The translations under genes and the position numbers were made by a program. Shown piece by piece: positions 58,587 through 64,000 of a stretch of DNA of 64,000 bases. Origin of the DNA: Candidatus Bathyarchaeia archaeon (GTDB taxonomy: Archaea; Thermoproteota; Bathyarchaeia; Bathyarchaeales; Bathycorpusculaceae); contig JBEKTQ010000006.1 of NCBI GenBank assembly GCA_049515895.1, positions 1-64,000 of the forward strand, read 5' to 3'. The notes under the pieces were generated by a model. It saw only the letters and a program-made list of their open reading frames with translations, was not told the origin of the DNA and did not search any database. The first letter of the stretch is position 1; each line of letters opens with the position of its first letter.

Positions 58587-58905
58587 GTGGGCTGGCGAGT
58601 TGGTGTGTGGCTTTCGGACCCAAAAATGCTGGGTCTGAGGAAACTCCGCCCACGTGTAGAATTGCAGCTCCATGATGGGGCAACGCGAGAGCGTTGGCAA
58701 CGGAGCAGAAACGAAACGTCCAATTGGACTTGTCGATGACGCCTTTGTGAGGTCGAGTGCGCCAACTTGGAAGCGGTGAAACGGCCGTCCTGCAAGTGGA
58801 AAGGGCAAACAGTCGCCGATGCGGAATCTACCCAAGGCGCGGGTAGCCCGATTAGCCGAATGCCACAATAACAGAAGGCGGGTTACAACCAGCACACCAG
58901 CCCAC
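58587..58905 (+). ncRNA. rnpB: RNase P RNA
   Basis: GAGGAAACTCCGCCC (CR-I), CAGAAA, TGAAAC, ACAGAAGGCGGGTTA (CR-V); P1 GTGGGCTGG/CCAGCCCAC. Confidence 0.93.
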
Positions 58906-58930
58906 ACAATAACAGAAGGTAATCTACAAC
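58864..58930 (+). repeat. Direct repeat of rnpB 3' conserved region
   Basis: CACAATAACAGAAGG-N5-TACAAC at 58864 and 58905. Confidence 0.85.
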
Positions 58931-59327
58931 AACAAATAGAATCTCCAGCGTTAAGGTATCGGCACGATGAATTAAAGACAAAAGGGGAAGCAACAAAAGA
59001 TAGGTATGAGAAATATTTTCAAGAGTTTTTGCAATTCATAAACAAAAATCCTGATGAACTAATCGTTCAAAGACAATAAGACCTACTAAACAAAGACCTT
59101 AAAATACAGAGAAAACAGAAAGCCAATTTTTAGCGTTCATGGCTAAGAAAAAACAAGAAGGCTATGCAATAGCAACCCTTCAAATAATATTTGCTTCTAT
59201 TCGCTCATTTTTTGAAATACACTATTTCCCTCTAAGAATGCGAATAGGAGATTACCCGAAAGGAGACGGCAATGGCGTAAAACGGGCATCCAAAAGAAGC
59301 CATACAAGCAGGAAGAATTACAGTTAA
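58920..59327 (+). pseudogene. Tyrosine recombinase N-terminal remnant
   Basis: ATKDRY..F..FL.FI...PDELI; GYAIAT....ASIRSFF; internal stop and frameshift; no catalytic domain. Confidence 0.65.
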
Positions 59328-59420
59328 GATTGTTACGTTACTTTTTCCAACTCTGAACCAAAAGAAGCCGCTAATAACATTTTGTTGAATTCTCTTTAGA
59401 CTAAGATTAATCTATATAGC

Positions 59421-59546
59421 CTATCTTGACTTTTGTCTTTCCACTCTGTCAAGTTTCTTCTTCTTGCGGGCATCTTCTCGCTCTTTCTTTTTCCGAGGCT
59501 GAGGTTTTCCCCGATCTCGTTCTCCTGTGTCTCCCTTCTTACTCAT
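59421..59546 (-). CDS. 41-aa highly charged basic microprotein
   Basis: AGGAG RBS; MSKKGDTGERDRGKPQPRKKKEREDARKKKK... Confidence 0.55.
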   Translation of the reverse strand: MSKKGDTGERDRGKPQPRKKKEREDARKKKKLDRVERQKSR

Positions 59547-59704
59547 CTGATAATCTCCTTATGATGAAAAAACGGCTGTAAGCTTCGCAAAGCCGTTCCT
59601 TGCCTTAATAATTAAGTAAATACAGTTTTTTATGAGTTGTGGGGCCAAAAGAATCCACAAAGAGCTCTGAAAAACCAAAAAAGAACGTGCAAAACAAAAG
59701 AAAG

Positions 59705-60664
59705 CTAAAAATAAGTTCTTTGATCTGGCAATTCGAGATTTAGTTGCATTTTCAGCAGCTTGTATCTATTTCTAACAGTAACTTCGGTGACTCCAGCAGC
59801 GTCCGCCATCTCTTTTTGTGTTATCTTTTCATTATTCTGAAGACAAGCTATGTAGAGTGCCGCTGCAGCCAGGCCCGTGGGATCTTTTCCTGCCGAAAAT
59901 CGTTTTCGTCTAGCCTCGGCAAGTATTGTTATCGCTGCGCCCTGTGTTTTGCCTGAAATCCCGTTTTTCTCGGCAATTTTTGAGACGTATGTCAGCGGAT
60001 CAGCAATTGGCATGTGAAAATCGAGCACTTGCAGTAGCAGTCTATAGCAGCGTGCGACATCTTTCTCGTCAACAAGGCTTGCTTCAGCGATTTCGTGAAG
60101 GCTTCTGGATGCTCCGCTCTTGCGACAAGCTGCATAAATTGAAGCCGCGATGATAGAGTTAATTGATCTTCCTCTGATTAGGCCTTTTTCTAACGCTTTG
60201 CGGTAAATAATAGCCGATTTTTCTTTGGTCGATCGTGAGATGGAAACTTTGCTTGATAAACGTTCAAGTTCAGACATGGCTTGTGCAAGGTTTCGGTCGC
60301 TGGATGAGTGTACTCGGCTGCGTATTTGCCATTTCCTGAGACGCCACATCTGCAATCTAGTGGAAAGGGGCAATTTCCTTCCGAATGCATCTCTGTCAAT
60401 TTGGCTGATTGAGGTGGATAATCCTTTATCATGGACATAATAGGAGGTTGGCATACCGACGCGGCTTCTTGATGTTTTTTCTTCTTGTGTAAAAGCGCGC
60501 CATTCGGGGCCTTTATCTAACATCTGCTCGTACAAAACAAGACCGCAGTCACCGCAGATGGTTTCGCCTGTGCCGCAGTCGTGGACAAGTTTTTTGCTTG
60601 TGCATTCAGGGCACTTTTCAGCTAAGTGAATATGCACTTTGGGGACTTCTAGGGTTAGACTCAT
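59705..60664 (-). CDS. tfb: Transcription initiation factor IIB
   Basis: CPEC..CGDCG ribbon, GPEWRAF, two cyclin folds, GVTEVTVRNRY. Confidence 0.96.
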   Translation of the reverse strand: MSLTLEVPKVHIHLAEKCPECTSKKLVHDCGTGETICGDCGLVLYEQMLDKGPEWRAFTQEEKTSRSRVGMPTSYYVHDKGLSTSISQIDRDAFGRKLPLSTRLQMWRLRKWQIRSRVHSSSDRNLAQAMSELERLSSKVSISRSTKEKSAIIYRKALEKGLIRGRSINSIIAASIYAACRKSGASRSLHEIAEASLVDEKDVARCYRLLLQVLDFHMPIADPLTYVSKIAEKNGISGKTQGAAITILAEARRKRFSAGKDPTGLAAAALYIACLQNNEKITQKEMADAAGVTEVTVRNRYKLLKMQLNLELPDQRTYF

Positions 60665-61045
60665 GTTTTAATCTCTGTTTATTTGCCCAGAATCGTCACT
60701 AAATCACTTAATGCTATTAAAGGTTAGAAAAGTGATAATGCGATCCTCGCATTCTAACTACGTGTACGTGCATCTATTATAAAGGACTTTGCTATCAAAT
60801 AACTAGATTTGGCATCCCACTACTAGCATTCCCGCTTATAGTGCGCGCGTTTAATAAATTGGCAATCAATTTTGGTAAGGTTGTTTTCCTTTCTTCACCT
60901 TAACACAATGTGTTATCATATTCAGGGGCTACTGGATTGGCAATGATAGTTACTCCTAATGACACTTCCTGAGCAGAAAAAACTTTGAGAACATCCAATT
61001 CTTCATAAAGATAAGACTCAAATCTGCATACCGTAGAATAGAATC

Positions 61046-61110
61046 TAGCGCGAGCTCCGCTTTGTGCCCAACAGCAACACGCAAAAGCCAAAGGAACCGC
61101 AAAAACCAAA
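61046..61110 (+). repeat. Dispersed GC-rich repeat copy
   Basis: TAGCGCGAGCTCCGC..ACACGCAAAAGCCAAAGGAACCGCAAAAACCAAA, close match to 20681. Confidence 0.75.
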
Positions 61111-61184
61111 CAAAAAAGAAACTGAGACTATATAACGAAGTGTTATTAGTCTTGTACGCACACCTGTAGCTTGAGTGGAGACGT

Positions 61185-61415
61185 ATTAAAAGAGTAGAGG
61201 CAGTTGCTCTTCTAAAAGAGCTAAGCTCGGGGATGTTAATTCAACCCGCTTTTGTGCTTCTTGAACGAAGATTCCCAGATATTTCTCAGTTATACCCAGA
61301 TAATTACCAGTTGAAAATTAAAGGCATTTACGACCTTCAAGAAATTGTGGTATTTCTTAATAACAGGTTCTTAATAGAAGAGAACGAAAACTTCCTAACT
61401 ATTTCAACACTTTAA
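61185..61415 (+). CDS. Small hypothetical protein (possible ATT start)
   Basis: GGAG RBS then ATT-KRVEAVALLKEL, in frame with the 61233 ORF. Confidence 0.5.
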   Translation: MKRVEAVALLKELSSGMLIQPAFVLLERRFPDISQLYPDNYQLKIKGIYDLQEIVVFLNNRFLIEENENFLTISTL

Positions 61416-61728
61416 AACAGCTATTACAATTTTTGCAAGTGTAAACTTCGATGCGAAAGACACAGGTCGCTAATGATTTATCAGGTTTTGCAACATCTTG
61501 GTTGCAGTGTGGACATTTTGCCATACAAAGCCATTTCTTTTGGTTTACAAACACCATTCATCAAGTTTTAAATTTATGTGGTTACGTGAAGATACAACAA
61601 ACTATCAGCACCAGAAAAAACTAGTGTTGTATAGGCACAAAAGAAAGATAGAAGCAAGCGCAATAACAATTGAGGGTCAGAATAAATGGAAAACTCTACA
61701 AAACGCTTGCCTGCCTGTTAAATCCGTC

Positions 61729-62250
61729 TTAAAGCCGCATCATGTGGCTTAAAATATGAATTGTCAGGATGAGATAGAATGCTGTGGTCATGCTAACGTG
61801 TACGAATCTGATGTACTTTTTTAAACTTTGCATTATGTTGAACCTGTAAAAAAGACCTGTCACTACGAGCGTAAGCGTGGCAACAAATAATGCAAATCCC
61901 GTTCCAATGAAGGACACCCTCGTTATCCAATATGTGAAGTGAACAGAAATAAGCGTGAAGGCAACCAAATTTCCTAATATGTGCACTCTTACCCACGCTT
62001 TGATTCTCGTGGGACGACGATGTTTCAAGACAACGTATATAGGCGTAACAACTGCGATCCAGAAGCCTCCTATCAAGACAGCCCAATGGGTAAACAGCAA
62101 GGAACCTACAGAAAAACTGAACAAAGACCTGTAAACAATTATAAGGGCTGATAGACATATCGTGAAAAGAACTATGACCAATGTTCCCCATTGGTCTGGA
62201 TTCTTTAAACGTTCCATATCCTTAACCAGTTTTACCTTTGATGCCCACAT
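61729..62250 (-). CDS. Cytochrome b/ferric-reductase-like membrane protein
   Basis: TM helices with two His pairs (VHILG..SVH; VHVSM..TIH). Confidence 0.6.
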   Translation of the reverse strand: MWASKVKLVKDMERLKNPDQWGTLVIVLFTICLSALIIVYRSLFSFSVGSLLFTHWAVLIGGFWIAVVTPIYVVLKHRRPTRIKAWVRVHILGNLVAFTLISVHFTYWITRVSFIGTGFALFVATLTLVVTGLFYRFNIMQSLKKYIRFVHVSMTTAFYLILTIHILSHMMRL

Positions 62251-62300
62251 GCACCGTATTATGACACCGTTATATCCTACTTATGAAGTTATGTCCAAAA

Positions 62301-62342
62301 TCTGAATTAATGAAGAAAAATTCTGAATTAATGAAGAAAAAT
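62301..62342. repeat. Perfect 21-bp tandem duplication
   Basis: TCTGAATTAATGAAGAAAAAT x2. Confidence 0.95.
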
Positions 62343-62745
62343 CTACTTGAGCAATATTCTAACAAATCAGCGCACGCTAATGGTTAGTTGTTCCAACACT
62401 GACGGTGATATAACAGATTTGTTCGGGGCATCCAAGAATTTTTTAGCTATATACGTCGGGCGCGCTAAACCCAACAAACTAAAGCAGATTCAACAATCCA
62501 ATTTTGAATGACCTTGTTCCAGTTTGGGCTGCTCCAACCGCTGCGGTTTTTCAGTTGATGTGTTGTACAACTCCATTTAAGCCAAATATGTCGATTTTTA
62601 AGAGATATTTTACGTATTGACCTGTTTTTGTGTTCGACAATTAGGTCTCTCAGCCCGTTTTGATATGCTTGCATTATGTACGAGGGTTTATTTGATGGTT
62701 TAGGCACTATTAAGATATATGAAAGCAACAGGAGAAAAGTAGAAC

Positions 62746-63153
62746 ATGATCAACAACTACCAAAAAGAAGTCCAAACAAAACTCACCAAAGGGCTCTTAG
62801 ACATGATTATTCTTCAATATCTCGACCAAGAATCCATGCATGGATACCAACTCATCACCAAAATCCGAAAAAGCTACGGCGTCTACTTCGGACCAAGCAC
62901 CATCTACCCATTACTAGGGCTATTAGAGAAAAAAGGCTACTTAAAGAGCGCCTGGAAAATGGATGCAGAAAGGCCACGAAAAGTGTTCAATCTCACTAAC
63001 GATGGGAAAAATTTCTTGAATTTTACCGAAAACTCACTCAACCTCCTCTGTAAAAATATGGTAGCCGATAGCAAAATCCAAATACAATCAGCCTCGCTAA
63101 TTTCGTCGAGATCAACGCTTCAAAGAGGAATCCCGCCTTTGACAGTCTGCTGA
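62746..63153 (+). CDS. PadR-family regulator
   Basis: KGLLDMIIL, HGYQL, STIYPLL, RPRKVFNLT..G. Confidence 0.9.
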   Translation: MINNYQKEVQTKLTKGLLDMIILQYLDQESMHGYQLITKIRKSYGVYFGPSTIYPLLGLLEKKGYLKSAWKMDAERPRKVFNLTNDGKNFLNFTENSLNLLCKNMVADSKIQIQSASLISSRSTLQRGIPPLTVC

Positions 63154-63815
63154 GAAAATCCCTTTTAGCCAGGTTTAGCGGCCAATCACGATCCTTCCGA
63201 GAATTTGAGTTTTGCCATCCTTCAGACCTGCCAAATGAATATGATAAGGCATTTTGAAAGAGGAGCTTGTCTTATATATTTTGAAACTGTAAAAAAACTG
63301 CCGGGGTTAGATGATCCATGTCAACGACAAAGATTTTGTTAGGCTGTTCGTATTCCTCGTTTTTGCTAAATTTCCGTGTCAAGCACATAAGATCAGTTAG
63401 CCGTTTGAATTGTTGCTTCTATAGGAAGCGCTGCGAGAGCTGTTTCTAATTACTGTTGCTTCTGTTCATCTAACAAGTAATATTTTTTGCGAATTTCACC
63501 GACTAAATAACGGCGCACCCTATAAATGTGCAAATAGAGAAGCCTAAAGAGACAAAAAGACTTTCATACGCAACCATTATAACCAAAACAAGAACTTCTG
63601 CCAAAATATATGCCACAGTTAGCACGCCTCATAAAAAAAGGACAAAACCATCCGCGCGCGCAAAACCAACATCATTAACACTACCGCCTAAGCGTGCGTG
63701 CGCTAAGAAAAACAAAGAGCTTTATTCGTTGATGGTAGCTCCGCTCCCGCTTGCGCCGACCGCCAAACTATTTGAGGAACAACCTGCTCATTGATTATCA
63801 AGAGGGAAGAAAGAA

Positions 63816-64000
63816 ATGTCCAAGGGGTATGGAACAATTGTTGGTAGAGTAGGCATCATTTTACTGCTTACTGGAATAGTTATCATGCTAGTTGGTTACT
63901 TAAGATCTCCAGCGCACACCAACCGCATACCAAGTAACTTGGTAACCTATCTTGGAGTAGGTTTAGCGGTTGTTGGAGCTATTTTGTTCCTCATATTTGT
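63816..64000 (+). CDS. Membrane protein, 5' part; runs off window
   Basis: MSKGYGTIVGRVGIILLL..., two TM helices. Confidence 0.55.
   Translation, partial: MSKGYGTIVGRVGIILLLTGIVIMLVGYLRSPAHTNRIPSNLVTYLGVGLAVVGAILFLIF

Follow-up and report, generated by a model that had tools for sequence, protein, structure and literature searches.

The 3' end of an archaeal RNase P RNA gene as a probable attachment site for a family of small tyrosine-integrase elements

The RNase P RNA gene (rnpB) studied here ends in 23 nt that very probably serve as the attachment site (attB) for a family of small tyrosine-integrase elements, and sequence comparison indicates that one of them, here called E1, integrated at this site and decayed, and that a 15-nt repeat found there was carried in by the element. 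The window, that is, the whole stretch of DNA analysed, comprises 64,000 nt and corresponds to positions 1-64000 of contig C6 in an assembly (G000) of 3.18 Mb in 53 contigs. The case rests on both boundaries of E1, a conserved arm, homologous integrases of two types, and recurrence in relatives (12 of the 117 genera sampled), all of which were observed. The copy of E1 in the window is dead, and the element family is widespread in the archaeal order.

That mobile elements integrate site-specifically into tRNA and tmRNA genes is well established, and Williams reportedly described in 2002 tyrosine-integrase elements residing in the 3' part of such genes. The integration described here is of the kind known from tRNA and tmRNA islands, with the RNase P ribozyme gene as its target. 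To our knowledge, almost no mobile elements have been described for the host order.

rnpB, a nearby repeat, and an integrase remnant

The attachment site and the integrase involve the following features.

58595-58897, plus strand: complete RNase P RNA gene, rnpB (cmscan RF00373, 188.6 bits, E 1.7e-54, model positions 1-288)
58864-58889, plus strand: first copy of the repeat (CACAATAACAGAAGG, five bases, TACAAC), inside rnpB (sequence, cmscan)
58880-58902, plus strand: attL core, the last 23 nt of rnpB, GGGTTACAACCAGCACACCAGCC (short-word BLAST partner at C6:65201-65223)
58905-58930, plus strand: second copy of the repeat, an rnpB-like motif at the start of the integrase-proximal (P') arm (arm alignments, metagenome loci)
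About 58939-59370, plus strand: pseudogene of a tyrosine integrase of the type here called int1, approximately residues 4-150 of about 399 (tblastn)

The rnpB gene belongs to family RF00373, its cmscan score standing against a cut-off of 84 and its match covering the full model. Read by eye, the P1 helix can be extended, with GGCTGG at 58590-58595 pairing with CCAGCC at 58897-58902, and with this extension the gene probably spans 58590-58902. The 15-mer CACAATAACAGAAGG occurs exactly twice, at 58864-58878 and 58905-58919, with a spacing of 41 nt, and in both copies TACAAC follows after five unlike bases (58884-58889 and 58925-58930), as a preliminary description of this DNA had reported. Dinucleotide shuffles gave 0.10 ± 0.33 matches at up to two mismatches, and two matches were reached in 1 of 100 shuffles. 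That description had also placed the first copy over a conserved rnpB motif and the second just outside P1, and both placements were borne out: ACAGAAGG at 58871-58878, inside the first copy, aligns with the invariant ACAGAAGG of the RF00373 model, a segment that we take to be CR-V, and the second copy begins 8 nt past the end of the Rfam model and 3 nt past P1 as extended by eye. The first copy is the B side of the attachment site together with the start of the core.

Contigs from the Logan collection, from three runs belonging to three studies, span the junction with 0 differences (X1, 58862-59472; X2, 58857-59472; X3, 58857-59314), although the assembly may derive from one of these runs. 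Because the contigs of three runs cross 58862-59314 without differences, a local misassembly, which had been raised as a possible flaw, is excluded. Contigs of a fourth run, X4, and several short pieces derive from the rnpB of other species, and the coverage gaps of X4 are uninformative.

The N-terminal recombinase fragment reported downstream of the repeat was recovered by tblastn, with 49% identity (residues 20-80) and 54% identity (residues 66-139) to an intact 399-aa integrase of the relative G008, and 67-70% identity (E 1.7e-42) to an integrase adjoining rnpB in G010. Its reading frame is broken by an in-frame stop codon (59077-59079) and by frameshifts near 59112 and 59300, its homology ends at about residue 150, and the catalytic domain is missing. 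The G008 protein is assigned to Pfam PF00589 (1.4e-15); a Pfam search with the window's integrase fragments returned no integrase match, only a sub-threshold CKAP2_C, and the fragment lacks the PF00589 catalytic domain (R..H-x-x-R..Y). It is a relic of a PF00589 member rather than a functional one. In a large protein collection, 234 relatives of the int1 family were found at E <= 1e-5, one of them named Candidatus Bathyarchaeia archaeon, the name from which the host group is judged.

The intact integrase ORF of G008 starts about 25 nt past the end of rnpB, lies wholly downstream of the core, and cannot extend through it. A C-terminal half matching the remnant, as proposed earlier, was found by tblastn neither near attR nor elsewhere in the genome, which yielded only paralogues at 22-42% identity; the segment C2:123647-123868, considered as the missing half, was rejected as a paralogous integrase with 32-42% identity over residues 175-336. 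The stump in the window is due to decay (stop, frameshifts, 3' deletion) and not to splitting of the SSV type. The reading frame 58819-59079 is indeed open from within rnpB across both repeat copies, but the significance attached to it falls away: its extension back into rnpB is meaningless, as the integrase gene is a pseudogene and its homologues begin downstream of the core.

Boundaries and cargo of E1

A short-word BLAST comparison of the rnpB 3' region with the 19 kb downstream identified GGGTTACGTCCAGCACACCAGCC at C6:65201-65223, a 21/23 match to 58880-58902, which lies 6.3 kb downstream of attL and 1.2 kb past the end of the window. This partner, designated attR, makes the last 23 nt of rnpB the true repeat, in place of the 15-26-nt repeat that had been taken for the att duplication. 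Within the whole assembly the core pattern is confined to attL and attR, and the attL core ends exactly at the 3' strand of the extended P1. About 110 nt preceding attR align with the sequence preceding displaced rnpB ends in four relatives (G003, 79% over 112 nt; G021, 72.5% over 120 nt; G008, 69.5% over 128 nt; G030, 91% over 45 nt), and the 26 nt following attR resemble the sequence directly 3' of rnpB in G012 and G015 (84-86%). The flank after attR starts with TATTTCGCTAAC, the P arm plus core contains ACTAAGGCTAAGGGTGGGTTAC, and the P' arm starts with CACACAATAACAGAAGG. The GC content is 0.35-0.46 between attL and attR versus 0.47-0.52 in the flanks. The match between attL and attR, the conserved arm, the far flank, and the drop in GC therefore identify 58903-65200 as an integrated element.

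In the proposed course of events, an int1-type element of about 6.3 kb would have recombined with the 3' end of rnpB, bringing its own copy of that end, now attL, while the displaced copy would mark the far boundary as attR. The target is regenerated, a complete match to the rnpB model being present after integration, and the ribozyme gene would have stayed whole because E1 supplied its 3' end. E1 would have decayed later, and it would now be fixed cargo (TFB, PadR, small membrane proteins), since its integrase is an N-terminal stump with a stop and frameshifts. Of the earlier proposal that rnpB served as attB, the attachment role of the 3' end thus stands, here and in many relatives, but the anatomy then proposed does not.

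The sequence reads ...TTACAACC... at attL and ...TTACGTCC... at attR, a difference of one dinucleotide, AA/GT, and the GT variant of attR is the rnpB sequence of G021, G009, and G030. Recombination probably took place in the identity block 3' of this difference; the element would have come from a host with the GT variant, with strand exchange 3' of the dinucleotide. Alternatively, the difference could be a mutation that arose after integration.

The part of E1 in the window holds the following features in addition to the integrase remnant.

58903-64000, continuing to C6:65200, no strand: body of the integrated element E1 (boundaries, arm, GC)
59421-59546, minus strand: 41-aa highly basic ORF, cargo or chance ORF, no Pfam match (ORF list)
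59705-60664, minus strand: full-length TFB, a TFIIB-like transcription factor (Pfam TFIIB 2.4e-38, Zn_Ribbon_TF 3.9e-15)
61729-62250, minus strand: 173-aa predicted membrane protein without family, cargo (ORF list, Pfam)
62746-63153, plus strand: PadR-family regulator, cargo (Pfam PF03551 9.9e-17)
63816-64000, ending at C6:64037, plus strand: small membrane protein gene (ORF list)

An ORF downstream of rnpB in G001 is 34% identical to the 173-aa membrane protein. Positions 63743-64081 share 82% DNA identity with G013, where the matching stretch lies directly 3' of an att-like repeat, and given this match of its 63.7-64.1 kb part, E1 may be composite. Two further TFB genes are present in the genome, at C8:5815-6723 (82% identity to the TFB of E1) and on C10 (43%); the TFB of E1 appears to be a basal transcription factor carried as mobile-element cargo, or else a recent duplicate. 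Past attR lie two paralogous surface-protein genes of 873-927 aa (C6:65328-67949 and 70301-73084, minus strand), and a gene 39% identical to them lies within the rnpB-bounded segment of G014, pointing to an older element of the array beyond E1. The genome contains a second, degenerate arm/core junction at C40:417-442 (minus strand), with one motif mismatch and three core changes, near the end of a contig of 8.9 kb and 41% GC that encodes a 1037-aa repeat surface protein; this junction could be a strain variant or one more of the array's old attR sites.

Recurrence in related genomes and relation to known elements

RF00373 was found in 34 of the 41 genomes searched, counting G000. The 21 loci analysed come from 20 genomes of the same genus, G000 included, and from G030, which belongs to another family; up to 20 kb downstream were taken for 20 loci, and the remaining genomes of other families were covered by 1.5-kb flanks. 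G022, whose rnpB is cut at a contig end, and a contig-end copy of G023 were left out, and the low family-search score of rnpB in G020 (L051, G020:C75) is due to a short run of N. The relatives are draft genomes, and because they are related to one another, the counts given for them are not independent.

An integrase or its remnant lies within 1.5 kb downstream of rnpB in 9 of the 21 loci, and most of these genes are broken. The int1 type adjoins rnpB in G000, G008 (intact), G010 (in two pieces), G019, and G021, and a different protein of 283-306 aa, int2, does so in G003 and G030 (intact, in the same orientation) and in G014 and G015 (inverted). Displaced copies of the rnpB 3' end were detected 0.7-11 kb downstream in 10 of the 21 loci, G000 included, and these repeats are restricted to the same 19-32 nt at the extreme 3' end. 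Those of the relatives are as follows.

Perfect: G003, two copies (26/26 and 25/25); G021, 25/25; G023, 22/22; G030, 25/25
Imperfect: G008, two copies (30/32 each); G013, 22/23; G002, 58 nt at 88%; G019, 40 nt at 87.5%
Weaker: G014, with an att-like repeat 4.2 kb downstream

The other 11 loci showed no displaced end, among them G006, G009, and G015, for which at most 1.3 kb of downstream sequence is available. The cargo differs almost entirely between elements, and synteny resumes at a gene for a TFS-like zinc-ribbon protein 4.3-18.3 kb past rnpB in 10 genomes (18.3 kb in G000). The differing cargo and the variable stretch of 4.3-18.3 kb therefore mark the 3' side of rnpB as a hot spot with arrays of old elements. 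A clean empty site was not found among the 21 loci, all of which have variable DNA after rnpB; G012, G014, and G015 were considered as empty sites and rejected, inverted int2 genes adjoining rnpB in G014 and G015 and the att-like repeat being present in G014. The flank after attR has a nucleotide match in G014 alone (71% over 305 nt, at a different offset). In G023 (L041), an ORF that by eye resembles a proteasome alpha subunit in its N-terminal sequence lies 1933-2652 nt past rnpB on the minus strand, between rnpB and the perfect 22-nt displaced end, so that a housekeeping-type gene may be located inside an att-bounded segment.

The distribution of the junction was followed with a motif consisting of the conserved arm and the core, AATTACTWAGNYYAANGNNRGGTTAC, allowing at most one mismatch. 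It was found in 41 of the 401 genomes of the order, including 23 of the 88 other genomes of the genus, and is spread over 12 of 117 genera and three families; a reversed control pattern gave 0 matches in the 401 genomes. A longer junction pattern matched 57 metagenome stretches and 0 viral contigs. Among the 15 of these 57 stretches submitted to cmscan, L063, L068, and L070 carry a full rnpB, 4.7-7.9 kb upstream of the junction, and L098 carries one that is cut at its 5' end. L068 and L070 have the order rnpB-int2...arm/core-int2 and are tandem arrays, because one int2 follows rnpB and another follows the junction. The integrase after the metagenome junction is int2 in 7 loci and int1 in 5.

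In several respects these elements resemble the genomic islands, proviruses, and plasmids of the Islander type that enter the 3' part of tRNA or tmRNA genes by means of tyrosine integrases (PMC4383910): the tyrosine integrase gene adjoins the target RNA gene, the element carries the 3' end of the target, the gene is regenerated and a displaced 3' fragment remains at the far end, tandem arrays build up at a single site, and integrases decay after fixation. The present elements differ in that the target is the RNase P ribozyme gene and in that the int1-type arm bears an additional rnpB-like putative half-site, derived from the sequence immediately 5' of the core. Among Thaumarchaeota, integrated elements (Krupovic et al. 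2019, PMC6563490) were assigned, in the part of that paper available to us, to 39 tRNA, 15 intergenic, and 14 protein-gene targets; they share with those described here their small and cryptic nature, tyrosine integrases, tandem integration at one site, and an element piggy-backing on another, and their att sites are similarly short (median 17 bp versus 19-23 nt here), whereas the host lineage here is a different one, probably Bathyarchaeia. The available main text of PMC6563490 contains neither 'RNase P' nor 'rnpB', and an 'intergenic' case in its supplement could be an unannotated rnpB. Intergenic integration sites may more generally conceal this gene, a point to be considered in annotation.

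SSV-type ('suicidal') archaeal integrases have attP inside the integrase gene, according to the available text of PMC7253208 and PMC8371274. The remnant in the window is likewise an archaeal tyrosine recombinase fragment abutting an att site, but here the core lies outside the integrase ORF, an intact homologue is unpartitioned, and the fragment results from decay. The targets listed in the available part of the review PMC8371274 are tRNA genes, protein-coding genes, and intergenic sites. In ProBord (PMC13626063), non-coding RNAs account for 13.5% of the RNA targets of border-delimited proviruses, their kinds being unnamed in the available main text; unlike those proviruses, E1 contains no virus hallmark gene that we could see. 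None of the papers retrieved by our literature search names rnpB, or the RNase P RNA gene, as a site of integration, although survey supplements may hold cases: rnpB appears only as a gene or marker in the available parts of PMC7921747, PMC7002104, PMC2705793, PMC5462765, and PMC2864759, and those of PMC12424338 and PMC12884075 have no mention of it. In these genomes, rnpB together with its displaced 3' end offers a ready marker for delimiting islands, and the system provides a natural integrase/attB pair whose target is an essential gene found universally and in single copy.

The rnpB-like motif of the integrase-proximal arm and competing explanations

The second repeat copy lies 2 nt past the core and just upstream of the former int1 start, and in aligned int1-type arms a related motif occupies the equivalent place in G019 (degenerate), G021, and G009. 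The host's own 7-mer, which is ACAGAAG, or ACAAAAG where rnpB has ACAAAAGG, occurs within 140 nt after rnpB in 5 of the 21 loci, against a background of 0.015 per 100 nt, at the following offsets.

G000, +41
G009, +41 and +81
G021, +51
G008, +62
G017, +76

Helical phasing of the two motifs is not claimed, since +41, +51, and +62 fit and +76 in G017 does not. G009 has three copies of the motif and yet no int1 in its 643 nt, and G010 and G019 are of the int1 type without the exact 7-mer. In the metagenomes, ACAGAAGG follows the arm/core junction at a single fixed offset in 6 of the 57 loci, four of which are identical over the stretch shown and may represent one population; it is present in 5 of 5 int1 loci and in 0 of 7 int2 loci. 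The motif ends 5-9 nt upstream of the int1 start codon in L072 and L078, and the arm of L078 reads TGCCACAAT-G-AACAGAAGG, by which its likeness to rnpB reaches further 5' than in the window. From the arms of relatives, the metagenome junctions, and the association with int1, it therefore follows that the motif travels with int1-type elements.

As read here, the int1 attP consists of an arm, the 3' terminal ~30 nt of rnpB, a short spacer, the rnpB segment just 5' of those nucleotides, and int1. The second motif may be a putative half-site bound by the integrase or by an accessory protein, or it may be part of the int1 leader or ribosome-binding region; possibly it is a fossil of both rnpB flanks captured by an ancestor with a crossover near AAGG. 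This additional half-site may reveal how an att site comes to include the 3' end of its target. A more comprehensive reading, which we put forward only tentatively, is that rnpB would serve an entire archaeal order (probably Bathyarchaeia) as a major integration hot spot not described before, used by at least two integrase types and filled with arrays of decaying elements, and that the int1 attP would be a circularly permuted rnpB 3' region, with the terminal ~30 nt placed before the segment just 5' of them. Such an order could be the fossil of a flank capture that turned a gene-splitting att site into a gene-restoring one, the segment having since been co-opted as a putative integrase half-site over the int start.

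Three other explanations of the locus have to be weighed against integration of E1 at the rnpB 3' end. It is quite improbable that the second copy arose by local slippage or tandem duplication in this genome only, unrelated to any element. Such an origin would explain why the copy matches the rnpB variant of the host at 15 of 15 positions, the variable CACAAT part among them, and why the motif also follows the host variant in G008 and G017 (ACAAAAG), as local copying would yield; the likeness stops, however, after 26 nt, the rest of the putative 41-nt unit being unrelated, homologous motifs occupy the equivalent place in G019, G021, and G009, and in the metagenome loci the motif follows the element arm and not rnpB, the extended likeness in the arm of L078 likewise arguing against local copying. 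We judge it very improbable that the region gathers integrases and partial rnpB duplicates by general recombination, without any site-specific integration: the lack of a clean empty site among the 21 loci, the almost complete difference in cargo between genomes, and the broken state of most integrases would agree with this, but the repeats are limited to 19-32 nt at the rnpB 3' end and often perfect (22-26 nt; G003, G021, G023, G030), one conserved arm precedes them in several genera and families, and the tandem arrays have an integrase after each junction.

The explanation given in the preliminary description, which equates the 15-26-nt repeat with the att duplication and takes the fragment for the N-terminal half left when an SSV-type integrase was split at att on integration, is hardly credible. 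It had in its favour an exact repeat, improbable by chance, and a frame open through both copies into the integrase fragment. The further copy of the 15-mer that should then serve as attR is nevertheless absent from the 3.18-Mb assembly, where two one-mismatch matches (C21 and C49) are due to chance because they lie inside repetitive surface-protein genes. The genome also lacks a matching C-terminal half, the intact homologue in G008 is whole and downstream of the core and its ORF cannot pass through the core, a proper attR with the conserved arm lies 6.3 kb away, and the same motif appears in the arms of related elements at +41, +51, and +62. Integration at the last 23 nt of rnpB, with an element-borne motif beside the core, thus remains the explanation that we favour.

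Further repeats were noticed in the arms. The int1 arms of G008 (L044) and G017 (L038) contain three repeats, approximately GTGTATTGAAC / TATATTGGATA, in the first 100 nt past rnpB, which are candidate arm-type binding sites, and a similar AATATTGGGATA is found about 50 nt before attR in G000. In L078 and L100, an inverted copy of the motif lies 31-40 nt further on; 60-105 nt past the junction, AACAGAAGG and its reverse complement CCTTCTGTT, 21-30 nt apart, straddle the int1 start in a layout that resembles an operator.
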